This document shows, piece after piece, positions 4,408 to 9,360 of a stretch of DNA of 20,380 nt; the stretch's first letter is position 1, and every line of letters begins with the position of its first letter. The stretch is from a virus (taxonomy: Duplodnaviria; Heunggongvirae; Uroviricota; Caudoviricetes). The stretch covers positions 1 through 20,380 of IMG/VR virus record IMGVR_UViG_3300045988_001600, one strand, 5' to 3'. A model generated the notes under the pieces. The model was not told where the DNA came from, searched no databases, and was given only the letters and a program-made list of their open reading frames with translations. The position numbers were made by a program, and so were the translations under genes.

Positions 4408-5292
4408 ATGGAAAACGAACTGATCATCGACGGTCAGGTTATTGACCTGTCTGAAACACAGGAAAATGCAGAAGAAACCATCATCCAAACAGAGTCACAG
4501 CCTGAGAATGAAAGCCAGGATGACAACGGAAAAGAGATGGCAACTGATCCTGAAAAAACCGAAGAGACACCAGAAGATTACGCCTTGCGTATTGGTGATG
4601 AAGAAATTCAGCTTAACGCTGACGATGATGATCACATTGACGGGCAACCTGCACCGCAATGGGTGAAAGATCTTCGCAAAGGCTTCAAAGAAACACAGAA
4701 AGAAAACCGTGAGTTGCGCCGCCAGCTTGAGGAAGCATTAGCCAAGCCAGCGGAACATCAGCAACCACAACCAGACGCTATTCCACCAAAACCGACTCTT
4801 GAGTCGTGTGATTATGACGAACAGGCGTTTGAACAGGCATTGACTGATTGGCATGAGAAAAAAGGCCGTGTCGAACAGCAGCAGCAACAAAAACTACGTC
4901 AGCAACAGGAATACCAACAGCGTTTCCAGCAAAGGGTAGAAGCGCATAAACAACGGGCAGCCAAACTTCCTGTGAAAGATTATCAGGAAATGGAGGCCAT
5001 TGTTCTTAGTGAGCTACCACCAATTCAGCAGGAAATCATCATTCACTGTGCAGACGAAGGCTCTGAACTACTCGCCTATGGCTTAGGTAAGAGCCAGCAA
5101 TTACGCCAGCGTGTAGCCGCTGAGACAGATCCAATTCGCGCAGCATTCCTCTTGGGGCAGATTAGCAAACAGGTAAGCCTTGCTCCAAAACCAAAGAAAG
5201 CCATCAAGCCAGAGCCGGAAGTACGTGGTGGCGGTGCTGATGCGAAACAAGACGAATTCAACAAATTATGCCCCGGCGCAAAAATCGAATAA
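4408..5292 (+). CDS. Scaffolding protein
   Basis: 294-aa acidic, Q/E-rich, predicted helical protein between portal and coat, with AGGAG upstream. The C-terminal part (KDYQEMEAIV ... LAPKPKK) parallels the coat-binding end of the P22 scaffold as recalled. Contains a CAG/CAA-rich low-complexity tract (QQQQQKLRQQQEYQQRFQQR). Confidence 0.8.
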   Translation: MENELIIDGQVIDLSETQENAEETIIQTESQPENESQDDNGKEMATDPEKTEETPEDYALRIGDEEIQLNADDDDHIDGQPAPQWVKDLRKGFKETQKENRELRRQLEEALAKPAEHQQPQPDAIPPKPTLESCDYDEQAFEQALTDWHEKKGRVEQQQQQKLRQQQEYQQRFQQRVEAHKQRAAKLPVKDYQEMEAIVLSELPPIQQEIIIHCADEGSELLAYGLGKSQQLRQRVAAETDPIRAAFLLGQISKQVSLAPKPKKAIKPEPEVRGGGADAKQDEFNKLCPGAKIE

Positions 5293-5303
5293 GGAAAAGA
5301 TAA

Positions 5304-6575
5304 ATGCCTAACAATCTCGACAGTAACGTCAGTCAAATCGTTCTGAAAAAATTCCTTCCGGGTTTTATGTCAGATTTAGTTCTGGCGAAAACCGTAGACC
5401 GTCAGTTGCTGGCAGGTGAAATCAACTCCAGCACTGGCGATAGCGTTAGCTTTAAACGTCCGCATCAATTCTCATCCCTCCGTACTCCCACTGGTGATAT
5501 TTCAGGGCAAAATAAAAACAACCTGATCTCAGGTAAAGCTACGGGGCGTGTAGGTAACTACATCACTGTTGCTGTTGAATATCAGCAACTGGAGGAAGCG
5601 ATCAAGCTTAACCAACTGGAAGAAATTCTCGCGCCGGTTCGCCAGCGAATCGTTACCGACCTTGAAACAGAGCTTGCTCACTTCATGATGAATAACGGTG
5701 CGTTGTCACTTGGTAGCCCCAATACTCCAATCACCAAATGGTCTGATGTTGCGCAGACGGCATCTTTCCTGAAAGACCTCGGCGTTAATGAAGGTGAAAA
5801 CTATGCTGTAATGGATCCATGGTCTGCACAGCGACTTGCTGATGCGCAGACTGGTTTGCATGCTTCAGATCAATTGGTTCGTACTGCATGGGAGAACGCA
5901 CAGATCCCAACCAATTTTGGCGGCATTCGCGCACTGATGTCTAATGGGCTTGCCTCTCGTACGCAGGGGGCATTTGGCGGAACACTGACAGTCAAAACAC
6001 AGCCAACTGTTACCTATAACGCAGTTAAAGACTCATACCAGTTCACTGTAACATTGACCGGAGCGACAACCAGCGTTACAGGTTTCCTGAAAGCTGGTGA
6101 TCAGGTTAAATTCACCAATACCTACTGGCTGCAACAGCAGACCAAACAGGCGTTGTATAACGGAGCCACACCAATTAGCTTCACTGCAACGGTTACTGCT
6201 GATGCTAATTCAGACAGCAGTGGCGATGTGACGGTTACGCTTTCTGGTGTTCCGATTTATGACACTACAAACCCGCAGTACAACTCTGTAAGTCGTCAGG
6301 TAGCGGCAGGTGATGCCGTATCTGTAGTAGGCACTGCTAGCCAGACAATGAAGCCAAACCTGTTCTATAACAAGTTCTTCTGTGGACTTGGCTCTATCCC
6401 ACTGCCGAAACTGCACAGTATTGATTCTGCTGTTGCAACATATGAAGGTTTCTCCATCCGCGTACATAAATACGCAGATGGCGATGCCAACGTGCAAAAA
6501 ATGCGCTTTGACTTACTGCCTGCATATGTGTGCTTTAACCCTCACATGGGCGGTCAGTTCTTCGGTAATCCGTAA
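5304..6575 (+). CDS. Major capsid (coat) protein
   Basis: 423-aa ORF after the scaffold with AAGGA upstream and a hairpin terminator just downstream. Size and position match the P22/Sf6 coat gene; assignment is by synteny and size, not by motif. Confidence 0.82.
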   Translation: MPNNLDSNVSQIVLKKFLPGFMSDLVLAKTVDRQLLAGEINSSTGDSVSFKRPHQFSSLRTPTGDISGQNKNNLISGKATGRVGNYITVAVEYQQLEEAIKLNQLEEILAPVRQRIVTDLETELAHFMMNNGALSLGSPNTPITKWSDVAQTASFLKDLGVNEGENYAVMDPWSAQRLADAQTGLHASDQLVRTAWENAQIPTNFGGIRALMSNGLASRTQGAFGGTLTVKTQPTVTYNAVKDSYQFTVTLTGATTSVTGFLKAGDQVKFTNTYWLQQQTKQALYNGATPISFTATVTADANSDSSGDVTVTLSGVPIYDTTNPQYNSVSRQVAAGDAVSVVGTASQTMKPNLFYNKFFCGLGSIPLPKLHSIDSAVATYEGFSIRVHKYADGDANVQKMRFDLLPAYVCFNPHMGGQFFGNP

Positions 6576-6617: not shown

Positions 6618-6803
6618 ATGGATCGCATGAGTGTATTCCTTGCCGCAGATAACGAATCCGGGCATGTACAGGCCGTTATCGCAGAAAAAGACTTCCAGTT
6701 TTTCGAAAAGTTGGGCTTTGTTGCCTCAGTTGATGAATTGAAACCGACCAGTAAGCGAGGTCGTAAGGCGGCAGACAATGGCAACAGTACTGACAAAGGG
6801 TGA
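6618..6803 (+). CDS. Hypothetical small protein (61 aa) between coat and head-completion genes
   Basis: ATG preceded by AAGGA; occupies the short coat-to-gp4 interval where P22-like phages carry a small ORF. Its 3' end overlaps the next gene by about 26 nt in another frame. No motif. Confidence 0.4.
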   Translation: MDRMSVFLAADNESGHVQAVIAEKDFQFFEKLGFVASVDELKPTSKRGRKAADNGNSTDKG

Positions 6804-7260
6804 GATCGTCCTTTTTGCGCTTCGTAAGTTTGCTATTGCTTCTAATGCATCGCTGACTGATGTTGAGCCGCAATCAATTGAAGATGGTGTAAATGATCTG
6901 GAAGATATGATGTCCGAGTGGATGATTAACCCCGGCGACATTGGTTACGCTTTCGCAACTGGAGATGAGCAGCCATTACCAGATGATGAGTCAGGTCTTC
7001 CAAGAAAATACAAACACGCAGTAGGCTATCAGTTATTGCTGAGAATGCTATCTGATTACAGCCTTGAGCCAACTCCGCAAGTTCTCAGTAACGCCCAACG
7101 CTCATATGATGCCTTGATGACCGACACTCTGGTTGTTCCTTCAATGCGACGACGTGGAGATTTTCCTGTAGGACAGGGTAATAAATATGACGTGTTTACA
7201 TCTGACCGATATTATCCAGGCGATCTCCCTATGATTGATGGCGATATCCCAAACGCATAG
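6778..7260 (+). CDS. Head-to-tail adaptor / head completion protein (P22 gp4-like)
   Basis: 160-aa ORF; the N-terminal region ([13 protein letters not shown] ... [24 protein letters not shown]) aligns by eye with P22 gp4 as recalled (TKGDLVRAALRKL ... [24 protein letters not shown]). Confidence 0.85.
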   Translation: [160 protein letters not shown]

Positions 7261-7268
7261 GTGAATAA

Positions 7269-7373
7269 ATGCCGATTCAGCAACTTCCGCTTATGAAAGG
7301 TGTCGGCAAAGACTTTCGAAACGCCGACTATATCGACTATCTGCCAGTGAATATGCTGGCAATTTTGATATAA
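7269..7373 (+). pseudogene. Remnant 5' end (34 codons) of the tail-hub (gp10-like) gene, cut off at the homing-endonuclease insertion
   Basis: ATG 8 nt after the gp4-like stop encodes [31 protein letters not shown], then ILI and a stop. This matches the N-terminus of the intact tail-hub gene at 7942 ([31 protein letters not shown]) at protein level but differs at many synonymous positions. Confidence 0.7.
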
Positions 7374-7409
7374 TAAGTACATGAAAAATCGAAACTTTAA
7401 GGAGTAGAT

Positions 7410-7994
7410 ATGCTTTCTGAGAATGCTAAAGATATACCTGGATTTGAAGGTGTTTATGCCGTAACAGAAGATGGCAGGGTATATTCTCACTCACGTGTTG
7501 TTAAGGCTGCGCATGGCAGCACGCAACTCAGAAAGGGGCGCTGGTTAAAGCCTAAAATCAATCAGGGAAGGGTGCTTTATAATATCGGAGCAAAATGGAC
7601 TTTTGCCCATCGAATCGTTGCAATGACATTCCTGCCAAATCCTGAAAACAAGCCTCAGGTAAATCATATTGATGGCAATCCACTCAATAATAACGTCAAT
7701 AATCTTGAGTGGTGCACTCAAAGCGAAAACATCAAACATGCATACGCCACCGGATTAAAGAAACCAATCAAGTTTTTCGGAACCAAGCACCCAAAACACA
7801 AGTTGAGTGATGACGATGTTCTTGCAATCAAGTCATCAAAAGAAAGCTTGTCAGTAATTGCGGCTAAGTACGGGATATCTAAGACCTGGGCAAGTAGGCT
7901 AAAGCGTGATGCTAACTGGGTTCATATAAAGGTTGATTCCAATGGCAATACAACAACTACCACTAATGAAGGGATTGGGGAAAAGTGCGGTTAA
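7410..7994 (+). CDS. HNH homing endonuclease (NUMOD4-like N-terminus, HNH core, C-terminal HTH-like region)
   Basis: 194 aa with strong AAGGAG 6 nt upstream. GFEGVYAVTEDGRVYS is a NUMOD4-type motif; QVNHIDGNPLNNNVNNLEWCTQSENIKH is an HNH_3-type motif; the C-terminal LSVIAAKYGISKTWASRLKR region looks like a helix-turn-helix. Visibly AT-richer than the flanking structural genes. The 3' end overlaps the next gene by about 50 nt. Confidence 0.88.
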   Translation: MLSENAKDIPGFEGVYAVTEDGRVYSHSRVVKAAHGSTQLRKGRWLKPKINQGRVLYNIGAKWTFAHRIVAMTFLPNPENKPQVNHIDGNPLNNNVNNLEWCTQSENIKHAYATGLKKPIKFFGTKHPKHKLSDDDVLAIKSSKESLSVIAAKYGISKTWASRLKRDANWVHIKVDSNGNTTTTTNEGIGEKCG

Positions 7995-9360
7995 TGCTGA
8001 TTATATAGACCAACTTCCAGTCAATCTTTTAGCTACGCCCAAGGAGGTGTTGAATTCATCGGGATATCTTCGCTCATTCCCGGGCATTGCCAAACGTTCT
8101 GATGTAAACGGCGTATCGCGCGGTGTCGAGTACAACATGGCGCAGAATGCTGTTTATCGCGTTTGCGGTGGCAAGTTGTATAAGGGCGAAAGCGAGGTCG
8201 GTGATGTTGCCGGAAGTGGTCGCGTATCAATGGCGCATGGTAGGACATCACAGGCAGTAGGTGTTAACGGGCAACTGGTCGAATACCGCTATGATGGCAC
8301 GGTTAAAACCGTCTCAAACTGGCCTACAGATAGCGGATTCACTCAGTATGAGTTAGGTTCAGTCCGCGACATTACACGCTTACGTGGGCGTTATGCGTGG
8401 TCAAAAGACGGTACTGATTCATGGTTTATCACTGACCTTGAAGACGAATCGCATCCTGACCGCTACAGCGCACAATATCGGGCAGAATCACAGCCTGACG
8501 GAATAATCGGTATCGGCACATGGCGAGATTTCATCGTCTGCTTTGGTTCATCGACGATTGAATATTTTTCCCTCACTGGTGCAACCACTGTTGGTGCCGC
8601 GTTGTATGTCGCACAGCCATCGCTGATGGTGCAAAAAGGCATCGCCGGAACTTACTGCAAAACGCCGTTTGCTGATTCCTATGCGTTTATCAGCAATCCG
8701 GCAACAGGTGCGCCGTCTGTGTATATCATCGGCTCCGGTCAGGCGTCACCAATCTCCAGCGCGAGCATTGAGAAAATACTACGCTCCTACACTGCTGATG
8801 AACTGGCTGATGGCGTGATGGAGTCTCTGAGATTTGATGCGCATGAGTTGCTGATTATCCACCTTCCGCGCCATGTTCTTGTTTACGACGCATCTTCAAG
8901 CGCCAATGGTCCGCAATGGTGCGTACTGAAAACGGGCCTGTATGACGATGTGTACCGCGCTATCGACTTCATTTACGAAGGCAATCAGATAACGTGCGGC
9001 GATAAGCTGGAATCGGTGACCGGGAAATTGCAGTTCGACATCAGCAGCCAGTACGACAAGCAACAGGAACACCTTCTGTTTACTCCGTTGTTCAAAGCGG
9101 ATAACGCCAGATGCTTCGATCTGGAGGTGGAATCATCCACTGGCGTAGCTCAGTACGCCGACCGCCTGTTCCTCTCTGCAACCACTGACGGCATCAATTA
9201 CGGGCGTGAGCAGATGATTGAGCAGAATGAACCGTTCGTTTACGACAAACGCGTTTTGTGGAAGAAAGTAGGGCGCATCAGGAAAAACATTGGCTTCAAA
9301 TTGCGCGTTATCACGAAGTCACCTGTCACTCTGTCTGGCGCTCAGATAAGGATTGAGTAA
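7942..9360 (+). CDS. Tail hub protein (P22 gp10-like)
   Basis: 472 aa from ATG 7942 (the track opens at a TTG at 7933). Sits between the gp4-like and tail-needle genes as in P22-like phages, with the stop overlapping the next start (TAATGG). Confidence 0.85.

Follow-up and report, generated by a model that had tools for sequence, protein, structure and literature searches.

Organization of the locus

The window, by which we mean the whole 20,380-nt stretch of viral DNA that was analysed, contains a gp4-like head-to-tail adaptor gene (6778–7260; Pfam P22_Tail-4, E 1.7e-74), followed by an HNH homing endonuclease gene (7410–7994; 194 aa), tail-hub gene 10 (7942–9360; 472 aa) and a Sf6-type needle knob gene; all features given with coordinates lie on the plus strand. 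An initial annotation had described the endonuclease as a free-standing gene between gp4 and gp10, within a feature spanning 7261–8000. Its expectation that the gp4/gp10 junction is uninterrupted in relatives was borne out, with an exact empty site in Sf6, HK620 and P22 and no insert in 103 of 105 flank-matching P22-like phage records; the position assigned to the gene was not. Alignment with Sf6 (Sf6 ...AATATGTTGGC/TACACC versus window ...AATATGCTGGC/AATTTTGATATAA...CTTTTAGC/TACGCC, slashes marking the junctions) defined both ends of a 673-nt insert (7361–8033), which is missing from Sf6, HK620, P22 and relatives and lies within gene 10, at codon 31. This placement follows because positions 7269–7360, which had been overlooked, duplicate codons 1–31 of gene 10. 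The right end of the insert is 8033, with a recoded tract continuing to 8061, and the gp4-like gene is an upstream neighbour outside the cassette.

Besides stop codons, a TGnTATAAT box and a ribosome-binding site (RBS), the insert contains the endonuclease gene together with codons 1–31 of gene 10 in a second, diverged version. It was 673 nt long in all examined carrier loci except ES5, which displayed a 1-nt deletion. The GC content of the insert is 40.4%, compared with an average of 49.6% for 673-nt windows of the late operon (sd 2.2, lowest 44.6%), in agreement with the AT-richness noted initially.

Upstream of the endonuclease gene, the remnant of the resident gene 10 start (7269–7376) forms a frame of 34 codons, comprising the native RBS and ATG, codons 1–31 (7269–7360) and then ILI and two stops (TAA TAA), with both the ILI and the stops contributed by the insert. 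The remnant is near-identical to the start of Sf6 gene 8 and reads MPIQQ...DFRN, whereas the new gene 10 start reads MAIQQ...SAVN; the two copies (7269–7360 and 7942–8033) are identical at 59/92 nt and 24/31 aa. Among the carrier loci examined there were 20 remnant haplotypes, which mirrored the polymorphism of endonuclease-free alleles; 19 of their variant codons are synonymous and 5 nonsynonymous, and premature stops are absent. In E. coli genomes, PGAP treats the corresponding sequence as a pseudogene under the name 'packaged DNA stabilization protein, missing C-terminus'. As a side observation on GenBank/RefSeq, at least one phage record misses the true gene 10 start, and the remnant is called a pseudogene.

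The imported, diverged start of gene 10 (7942–8061) comprises codons 1–40, of which codons 1–31 belong to the insert and codons 32–40 (8034–8061), rightward of the insertion point, form the recoded tract. Between this tract, TACGCCCAAGGAGGTGTTGAATTCATCG, and the empty-site sequence TACACCCAAAGAAATCCTGAACAGCAGC there are 10 differences over 28 positions, only one of which is nonsynonymous. The imported stretch had a pi of 0.002–0.013 among carriers and differed from endonuclease-free alleles by 30–44%, a divergence that dropped to 7% directly past gene 10 nucleotide 120. The hybrid gene 10 matches Pfam Phage_stabilise over its full length (profile positions 1–469, E 1.7e-297), and the same hybrid is found in the isolated phage UPF_BP1; judged from its sequence, it is functional.

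The 3' end of the endonuclease gene overlaps the new gene 10 start, as the initial annotation had stated, by 53 nt (7942–7994) from the ATG at 7942, which lies in the +1 frame. Within this overlap the gene 10 frame is kept between lineages and the endonuclease C-terminus varies. Because the insert itself carries the replacement 5' end of gene 10, the overlap would be part of a mobile cassette rather than a chance abutment. No self-splicing intron around the endonuclease gene was found as an Rfam match at E≤1 within 6700–8600, and there is no in-frame intein, the remnant frame closing with TAA TAA and gene 10 being read in a different frame from the endonuclease.

A donor of the new gene 10 start was sought by tblastn against phages, which returned only UPF_BP1 at 100% (next best 86%), and by a degenerate-DNA scan of IMG/VR and metagenomes, which returned only contigs that also carried the endonuclease gene. 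Across phages, IMG/VR and metagenomes, the imported allele was never met without the endonuclease gene. Salmonella phage NM-3, which matched in two places in the tblastn search, proved to be a false lead, its gene 10 being uninterrupted.

Signals at the left end of the cassette

Close to the left junction lies TGATATAAT (7366–7374), a perfect extended -10 promoter-like box that represents a candidate promoter. In the 20.4-kb window TGNTATAAT was found once, both strands considered, with a chance expectation of about 0.6 per window. The same-site lineages have saturated synonymous divergence, and all of them have kept the TGnTATAAT box, even those where the stop codon of the remnant comes from elsewhere; the box was missing from a related endonuclease at the gp10/gp26 site. 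A sigma-70 scan, whose model excludes extended -10 promoters, found no -35/-10 promoter in the insert, and the box was therefore assessed apart from that scan. The endonuclease gene has its own strong RBS, as had been noted initially, in the form of the Shine-Dalgarno sequence AAGGAG (7399–7404), 5 nt before the ATG at 7410. Its leader, AAATCGAAAC..GGAGTAGATATG, is common to related endonuclease genes at another site.

An inverted repeat, TGCCAGT..GCTGGCA (7342–7361), ends exactly at the insertion point, and its stem is native gene 10 sequence. The predicted RNA hairpin folds at -11 kcal/mol (z -2.6), and together with ATTTTGAT of the insert it looked like a weak terminator in a terminator scan. 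This candidate was set aside, as the arrangement is unconserved in the L204 lineage.

The endonuclease and its predicted target

The protein comprises a NUMOD4 beta-domain, an HNH_3 core, a three-helix C-terminal domain and a disordered tail. Pfam identified NUMOD4 in residues 7–53 (E 1.3e-8, 35.3 bits, cutoff 23.4) and HNH_3 (PF13392) in residues 65–107 (E 1.9e-10, 40.6 bits, cutoff 24.8), and the protein matched PHROG 59 'HNH endonuclease' (E 3.9e-53). The initial annotation had proposed NUMOD4, HNH and HTH-like regions. The first two were thus recovered; for the third, no Pfam HTH or NUMOD1 model matches the C-terminus, and it is the AlphaFold2 model (pLDDT 88) that places three helices at 134–165. 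Residues 175–194 were modelled at a pLDDT of about 50 and are poorly kept between lineages. I-HmuI (1u3e) was the sole significant PDB match of the fold by Foldseek (E 4.8e-7, 189 columns) and the sole PDB match by sequence too (E 1e-8). Residues H86, N98 and N107 align with I-HmuI catalytic residues, H86 corresponding to H75 and N107 to N96, and N85, H86, N98, N107 and H110 are invariant across 55 homologues. N85 occupies the position of the metal-binding D74 of I-HmuI and is invariant within the endonuclease's own family. A scan of one genome per species for relatives returned no close one, the best being 49% identical. These matches and the predicted fold indicate an I-HmuI-type homing endonuclease (NUMOD4, HNH_3 and helix-turn-helix).

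All endonuclease-free alleles that were examined, from E. coli, Salmonella and Proteus, contain the core AATATGYTGGC. Carrier lineages without exception have AATCTTTTAGC, AATCTGTTAGC or AATTGCTTAGC in its place in their new copy, and M29, beside the insertion point, was replaced in all carrier lineages. The target is thus predicted to lie at or near AATATGYTGGC/NAC in gene 10 of P22 and Sf6. Compared with the Sf6 site across 45 nt that include the insertion point, the new copy displayed 19 differences and the remnant junction 21, figures to be read against a recognition site that is only predicted. Carriers would be immune, since their remnant copy has the target divided by the insert and their new copy has it recoded. 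The sharp right border (8061/8062) could reflect recombination being barred from starting inside the tract of 10 mismatches in 28 nt, and is by itself no proof of selection for immunity because lack of homology could suffice.

Distribution, diversity and decay

The insert was present in 2 of the 105 flank-matching phage records, both of them records of the Salmonella phage UPF_BP1, and among the 913 E. coli genomes that matched the locus, 18 (about 2%) carried it and 895 lacked it; hosts of the cassette are accordingly E. coli prophages and this one Salmonella phage. The initial proposal of a selfish homing gene in an essential operon stands in that HNH and NUMOD4 profiles of homing type match, the gene is sporadic and missing from most relatives and its composition is unusually AT-rich; the intergenic position falls, and homing itself is a proposal developed below.

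Among 25 distinct carriers, the 701-nt cassette was 99.4% identical (3.4% segregating sites) and the gene 10 body 91.6% identical (29.8% segregating sites), which amounts to a roughly ninefold lower diversity in the cassette than in its flanks. Carrier diversity was lowered beside the cassette and restored by roughly 500–700 nt; the endonuclease-free diversity set comprised 17 alleles gathered via another endonuclease gene, and one very divergent allele inflates its diversity. Carriers have at least three gp4 types, with 39–42% amino-acid identity between types by tblastn, which replaced an ungapped comparison whose values (0.24–0.32) were an alignment artefact and no estimate of identity. The remnants match the local gene 10 allele, being Sf6-type in the window and P22-type in UPF_BP1.

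Relatives at 69–83% protein identity (L203–L208) occupied the same site with the same layout. Between same-site lineages the endonuclease displayed a pN of 0.07–0.17 versus a pS of 0.59–0.92, values which indicate strong purifying selection. Apart from three, the examined carrier loci have all kept the ORF intact. The decayed copies comprised a frameshift (ES5), a W63 nonsense mutation (L197) and an IS21-family insertion (L201), with gene 10 intact in each.

HZ41-type phages have a related endonuclease gene at their gp10/gp26 junction, and that one does lie between genes. In the window the ATG of the new gene 10 is closely preceded by GGTTGATTCCAAT, where HZ41 has GGCTGATTCGAAT; this may be a vestige of a gp26 start, and is too short to interpret.

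Interpretation of the locus

From comparison of the sequences, the locus is probably an I-HmuI-type homing endonuclease cassette that sits inside the essential gene 10 at codon 31 and has replaced the start of that gene, and we infer that the cassette homes. Alleles would meet in a mixed infection, or when a superinfecting phage encounters a prophage. The enzyme would then nick or cleave the endonuclease-free gene 10 at or near AATATGYTGGC/NAC, and repair would copy the cassette into the cut allele, with the 92-bp remnant and upstream DNA serving as left homology arm and the gene 10 body from 8062 on as right arm. The split and recoded target would spare the carriers, and such a layout would give an endonuclease gene a place within an essential, conserved gene that requires neither intron nor intein. 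Decayed copies with intact gene 10, read as life-cycle decay of the endonuclease gene, count in favour of this reading, and the isolation of UPF_BP1 as a phage with the same hybrid gene speaks for the viability of the arrangement. Against it, these phages are highly mosaic, so that a linked cassette could travel through ordinary recombination with no contribution from the endonuclease; N85 stands in place of the metal-binding D74 of I-HmuI, although it is invariant in the family; the searches turned up no donor having the new gene 10 start but lacking the endonuclease; and the right border may have the simpler cause given above.

In an alternative account, one old illegitimate recombination made the duplication and the nuclease no longer homes, so that the cassette is a passive relic spread by homologous recombination and hitch-hiking. 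The strong mosaicism of P22-like genomes (gp4 and gene 10 3' modules), the existence of inactivated copies and a right border that lack of homology alone can explain are all consistent with such a history. We nonetheless regard it as improbable, as the ORF has stayed intact in all but three examined carrier loci and under strong purifying selection over lineages whose synonymous sites are saturated, the flanks are about nine times as diverse as the cassette, and M29 has consistently been replaced in all carrier lineages.

Purifying selection over so long a time would also fit a nuclease retained for the benefit of the phage as a weapon or regulator, for example by cutting gene 10 of endonuclease-free competitors, with homing as a by-product. 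Expression from its own promoter, possibly in the lysogen, could then act against competing or superinfecting P22-like phages; the TGnTATAAT box at the left end is kept across diverged lineages, and the target is an essential gene of close competitors. Carriage by only about 2% of E. coli genomes with the locus argues against a strong benefit, as do the decayed copies, and about 0.6 TGnTATAAT boxes per window would arise by chance. We consider this account no likelier than that of a relic.

An ordinary intergenic free-standing gene between gp4 and gp10 would agree with an independent ORF that has its own RBS, and with the truly intergenic relative in HZ41-type phages, but is highly improbable, since empty-site alignment places both junctions inside gene 10, with the 92-nt remnant upstream, and thereby refutes the position. 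An HNH domain within a phage morphogenesis operon might likewise suggest a packaging-associated protein like those that help terminase in cos phages, a reading we give almost no weight, as the gene lies about 5 kb from the terminase genes, most relatives lack it, Sf6, HK620 and P22 package without it, and NUMOD4 and HTH modules for DNA binding give the protein an I-HmuI-like architecture.

A natural series for study is available in about 50 carriers, together with decayed copies, precise empty sites and lineages that have diverged. P22 and Sf6 are among the best-developed phage genetic systems, and a concrete predicted target in both, together with the isolated carrier UPF_BP1, makes homing, immunity by recoding and co-conversion directly testable.

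Comparison with known systems

I-HmuI, an intron-encoded nicking HNH enzyme of Bacillus phage SPO1 (PDB 1U3E), shares with the endonuclease described here the N-terminal beta/NUMOD4 region, HNH core and C-terminal helical/HTH domain, as well as the general-base His and metal-binding Asn. The two differ in that identity is about 25%, Asp74 of I-HmuI is Asn85 here, and I-HmuI resides in a group I intron whereas the present gene lacks one.

Free-standing Seg and Mob endonucleases of T4-like phages perform 'intronless homing' by cleaving endonuclease-free genomes and co-converting flanks, and some insertions split genes, as with mobE/nrdA of Aeh1, mobA/T4 genes 39–60 and seg/gene 43 (PMC2988022). 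The cassette resembles these in using neither intron nor intein and in that some lie inside essential genes (PMC2988022). In contrast, the split genes yield two polypeptides, whilst gene 10 remains in one piece thanks to the start that the cassette brings, with part of the gene left duplicated; the string 'duplicat' does not occur in the text of that review (PMC2988022). The cassette is also comparable to endonuclease genes at genetic-exchange boundaries in ICP1 and other phages (PMC10448857), in that its ends fall together with a sharp change of sequence relatedness beside an essential structural gene; the genes described there are intergenic or intron-associated, with no replaced gene start and retained remnant described. 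Our literature searches on the cassette, on UPF_BP1 and on phage endonuclease genes with partial gene duplication returned no description of the arrangement.

The closest described architecture that we found is the 'gene hybrid' formed by mobile ORFs in fungal mitochondria, namely atp6 of Allomyces macrogynus and atp6, atp9, cox2 and nad3 of Glomus (PMC3630166), none having been found described outside fungal mitochondria. There, as here, an endonuclease ORF brings a foreign, diverged gene terminus that is fused in frame to the resident gene, and the native terminus stays as a nearby duplicate resembling the alleles of close relatives (PMC3630166). The fungal elements replace the 3'/C-terminal end, encode LAGLIDADG or GIY-YIG enzymes and reside in organelles (PMC3630166), whereas the arrangement is mirrored in the present cassette, which replaces the 5'/N-terminal end, encodes an HNH enzyme, resides in a dsDNA phage and has a gene start that overlaps the endonuclease ORF. 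Because the 5' end is replaced, the cassette must supply translation start signals too. It would therefore work like the gene-hybrid class without being a member by descent, given the mirrored end, the other enzyme family and the other host.

We tentatively suggest that the locus might be a phage counterpart of this strategy, that is, a self-contained cassette for gene-start replacement, with its own promoter and RBS, that houses an endonuclease gene in a conserved essential gene with no splicing, whose old start forms a renewable homology arm and whose half target, 5 nt upstream of the promoter, could serve autoregulation. I-TevI is reportedly autoregulated, a behaviour to which this possible role of the half target site may be likened. 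If the candidate promoter drove expression in the prophage, superinfecting relatives that lack the endonuclease could have their tail-hub gene cut as well. To our knowledge, endonuclease genes have been thought to persist in essential genes only via introns, inteins or splitting of the gene into two working pieces. The present cassette would represent a third solution, in a phage, whereby the element replaces the start of the gene with its own recoded copy.

Genomic context and structure of the insertion

The window spans the late region of a temperate Sf6/P22-like phage. Its plus-strand genes encode an Sf6-type small terminase, large terminase, P22 portal, scaffold, P22 coat, gp4 adaptor, gp10 tail hub, Sf6-type needle with knob, DUF2824, gp7, gp20 and gp16. 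Next come an mnt-like Arc/Mnt repressor gene (14843-15136, minus strand), a gene for a tailspike whose head-binding domain is that of P22, and the gtrC/gtrB/gtrA cluster for O-antigen glucosylation (17092-19788, minus strand). The gtr genes displayed a GC content of 30-39 %, far below the remainder of the window; both they and the mnt-like gene are typical of serotype-converting P22-like prophages.

The point of interest is how an endonuclease gene (7410-7994, plus strand) is lodged in gene 10, the tail hub gene. A short plus-strand ORF (7269-7376), overlooked in the initial annotation, separates the gp4 stop codon (7260) from the endonuclease gene. Codons 1-31 of this ORF duplicate the gene 10 start, with identity to 7942-8033 at 24 of 31 amino acids and 59 of 92 nucleotides. 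We refer to this ORF as the remnant. In Sf6, which lacks the insert, the empty site reads GTGAATATGTTGGC directly followed by TACACCAAAAGAA. The window instead reads GTGAATATGCTGGC (to 7360), AATTTTGATATAATAAG, the endonuclease gene, CAATCTTTTAGC (to 8033) and TACGCCCAAGGAG, and alignment to Sf6 defined both junctions to the base. By this alignment the insert comprises 673 nt (7361-8033) inside codon 31 of gene 10 and brings with it an in-frame replacement gene start, contrary to the earlier reading of an intergenic insert between gp4-like and gp10-like genes. The PGAP annotation of E. coli genomes contains all three parts, labelling one a pseudogene ('packaged DNA stabilization protein, missing C-terminus'), one an HNH endonuclease (WP_021538734.1) and the third gp10, which overlaps the endonuclease.

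The resulting hybrid gene 10 starts at ATG 7942 (plus strand) and matched the Phage_stabilise profile over its full length, and hence overlaps the endonuclease ORF by 53 nt. Its translation must therefore begin within that ORF, and a purine-rich stretch was present 5-10 nt before the new ATG in each lineage (AAGG in the window, and GGAG and GAGG in the diverged same-site relatives L204 and L203, respectively). In Sf6, the small domain with which the tail hub docks between a pair of adaptor subunits is built from both its N and C termini (PMC9728967), so the 40 replaced residues belong to the gp4-binding part. The hybrid gene is functional in at least one isolated phage, UPF_BP1. In the annotation of that phage (L001 2283-3593; NC_047875 / KX776161), gene 10 is 36 codons short at 436 aa; the true start falls within the endonuclease ORF, and no separate feature marks the 5′ remnant.

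An I-HmuI-type HNH endonuclease

The endonuclease gene itself is ordinary. Its 194-aa product had been proposed to contain NUMOD4, HNH and HTH-like regions. Pfam identified the first two at residues 7-53 (NUMOD4) and 65-107 (HNH_3), both exceeding curated cutoffs, in agreement with a match to PHROG 59 'HNH endonuclease' (E 3.9e-53). The HTH-like region matched no Pfam model and is backed instead by structure prediction, as I-HmuI was the only significant Foldseek match in the PDB (E 4.8e-7, 189 aligned columns). The AlphaFold2 model, generated from an alignment of 55 homologues (mean pLDDT 88), comprised an N-terminal beta domain, an HNH core, three helices (134-165) and a low-confidence tail from approximately residue 175. 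I-HmuI (1U3E) was also the sole solved structure with a sequence relationship to the protein (E 1e-8), with H86 aligned to its general base H75 and N107 to its metal ligand N96. Residues N85, H86, N98, L99, E100, W101, N107 and H110 were invariant among the 55 aligned homologues. The enzyme belongs among the I-HmuI-type HNH endonucleases.

Other features noted initially also held. The gene has its own ribosome-binding site (AAGGAG, 5 nt upstream of the ATG), its 3′ end overlaps the tail hub gene, and the insert is AT-rich, its GC content of 40.4 % falling below every other 673-nt window of the late operon (mean 49.6 %, sd 2.2, minimum 44.6 %). Residues ~175-194, encoded by the overlap, are poorly conserved and modelled as disordered; this tail seems to be no functional part of the enzyme, but read-through into the start of gene 10.

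Distribution and signature of movement

The insert was sparsely distributed. Among 105 P22-like records in the phage collection that matched the flanks, it was present only in Salmonella phage UPF_BP1 (two records, one phage), whilst 913 of 5,426 complete E. coli genomes matched the locus and 18 of these carried it. As so few phage records (2/105) and E. coli genomes (18/913) carry the gene, it is not common to all related phages, in line with its original description as an insertion. A further 27 carrier contigs were identified in IMG/VR and eight in the metagenome set; a scan of one genome per species yielded no close relative.

We compared 25 distinct carriers across the 673-nt insert plus the adjoining recoded tract (7361 to 8061; 701 nt), hereafter the cassette. 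Mean identity was 99.4 % with 24 segregating sites (3.4 %), versus 91.6 % and 387 of 1299 sites (29.8 %) in the gene 10 body (nt 121-1419). Upstream, carriers possessed several gp4 types with 39-42 % amino acid identity to that of the window. The remnant comprised 20 haplotypes with the same polymorphisms as endonuclease-free gene 10 starts, that of UPF_BP1 being P22-type. Its variant codons (19 synonymous, five nonsynonymous, no premature stops) follow the pattern expected if every remnant had until recently been in use as a gene start. Immediately right of the insert, a 28-nt tract (8034-8061) was invariant in carriers, with 10 differences from empty-site alleles, nine of them synonymous. 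From 8062 carriers shared the polymorphism of endonuclease-free alleles, and between-group divergence fell from 30-44 % to 7 %. Carrier diversity just right of the cassette was approximately half that of endonuclease-free alleles, converging by approximately nt 500-700, which is weakly suggestive of co-conversion or hitch-hiking given that the endonuclease-free set was small and gathered via another endonuclease gene. E. coli CB7286 matched window positions 7200-8100 at 100 % and 8100-9360, deeper in gene 10, at 88-96 %, indicating quick breakdown of linkage right of the cassette. Neither the new gene 10 start without an endonuclease gene, nor its donor, nor the founding event was found in phages, IMG/VR or metagenomes.

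Older relatives, selection and decay

A large protein search identified endonucleases 83, 82, 72 and 69 % identical to that of the window. Every contig encoding these had the layout of the window: gp4, then a gene 10 remnant that terminates near PVNML(A), followed by stop codons, TGnTATAAT, a leader (AAATCGAAAC..GGAGTAGAyATG) and the endonuclease gene, which is overlapped by a new gene 10 start. One same-site lineage was nearest to Proteus phages (74 % nucleotide identity), and the remnant of another, PLARGLRKDPHTADYIDGLK followed by a stop, matched the start of gene 10 in Proteus phage vB_BPM-V3, where the gene is uninterrupted (MPRIQIPLARGLRKDPHTADYIDGLPVNMLATPKEV). Gene 10 of the L203 lineage (L203 3560-5353) and vB_BPM-V3 (L209 2001-3782) encodes ~595 aa rather than 472 aa, with an extra internal segment in the tail hub.

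Between same-site lineages the endonuclease displayed pN of 0.07-0.17 against saturated pS of 0.59-0.92, indicating that the protein has long been kept by selection. Inactivated copies were also present, each beside an intact gene 10: E. coli ES5 carried a 1-nt deletion splitting the ORF (L005 1711-2294), one contig (L197) a nonsense codon at W63, and another (L201) an IS21-family element (906-2812; IstA 340 aa, IstB 260 aa) inside the ORF. A 140-aa truncated form was present in the protein database. Such decay beside intact gene 10 fits the usual endonuclease-gene cycle of invasion and degeneration.

A second endonuclease site at the far end of gene 10

Related NUMOD4-HNH genes, 55 and 43 % identical to that of the window, were present at a second hot spot, downstream of the gene 10 stop codon and ahead of the needle gene (phage HZ41, L003 2446-2991; L034 3001-3543; L053 3001-3531; L015-L017 about 4973-5515). 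Here the endonuclease stop overlaps the needle ATG (ATGGCTGA) with no duplication. Three contigs carried both elements, gene 10 being bracketed by two endonuclease genes. The window (7440-7530) and HZ41 (L003 2475-2565) endonuclease genes were 87-97 % identical over nt 30-120, aa 1-47 being nearly identical, and fell to 37-63 % thereafter; this drop suggests that an N-terminal module has been exchanged between the two sites. Genomes with the second-site gene also possessed a diverged gene 10 3′ module (last ~300 nt in L015-L017; about 2130-2424 in L003), 57-72 % identical to the window compared with ~90-95 % elsewhere, and endonuclease-linked replacement is thus evident at both gene 10 termini. 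These are the two termini that form one adaptor-binding domain in Sf6 (PMC9728967).

Predicted target and probable mode of spread

All endonuclease-free alleles (E. coli, Salmonella and Proteus), and all remnants reaching that point, contain AAT ATG YTx beside the insertion point. Every new copy reads AAT CTT TTA GC, AAT CTG TTA GC or AAT TGC TTA GC, changing M29 to L or C and recoding the next codon. This contrast is the best computational pointer to a predicted target site. I-HmuI, the closest characterized relative, is a nicking enzyme. The enzyme would nick or cut endonuclease-free gene 10 near the predicted site AATATGYTGGC|NAC, and repair would be templated by the carrier genome, the left arm consisting of the 92-bp remnant and upstream DNA and the right arm of the gene 10 body starting at 8062. 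Carriers would be spared because the remnant holds only a split site and the new copy a recoded one. With both arms within gene 10, the cassette could enter phages whose gp4 genes are unrelated in DNA, matching the variety of gp4 types among carriers. Alternatively, the cassette may have spread passively through the frequent recombination of P22-like phages, but, on sequence comparison, selection on the endonuclease protein and low cassette diversity make active homing the more probable of the two.

The cassette may also carry its own promoter. No perfect extended -10 motif other than TGATATAAT (7366-7374) occurs in the window. Such a box is kept throughout the same-site lineages, even where the remnant stop codon is not part of it; it is absent upstream of the related gene at the other site. 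The insertion point is the 3′ end of a native gene 10 inverted repeat (GCCAG-N8-CTGGC; 7342-7361), which with the T-rich insert start resembles a weak intrinsic terminator directly upstream of the box. This putative promoter box is preceded, at a distance of 5 nt, by the left half of the presumed target, which the cassette leaves in place, recalling the I-TevI operator arrangement (PMC2988022). Prophage expression of the endonuclease, and interference with endonuclease-free superinfecting phages, would at this stage be a speculative possibility.

Comparison with known systems

The cassette behaves as a mobile element, as do the free-standing endonuclease genes of T4-like phages. Where those are sited inside genes, the host gene is split into two polypeptides (PMC2988022), and no duplicated gene end is described in the T4-like endonuclease review (PMC2988022) or the ICP1 study (PMC10448857). 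Our literature search likewise found no description of an endonuclease-in-gene-10 arrangement. The closest described architecture is the mobile-ORF 'gene hybrid' of fungal mitochondria, in which a C-terminal gene segment of foreign origin arrives with an endonuclease ORF and is fused in frame, the native C-terminus being left behind as a duplicate (PMC3630166). The gene 10 case mirrors this at the 5′ end, with the differences that the cassette must also supply translation start signals and that the two ORFs overlap.
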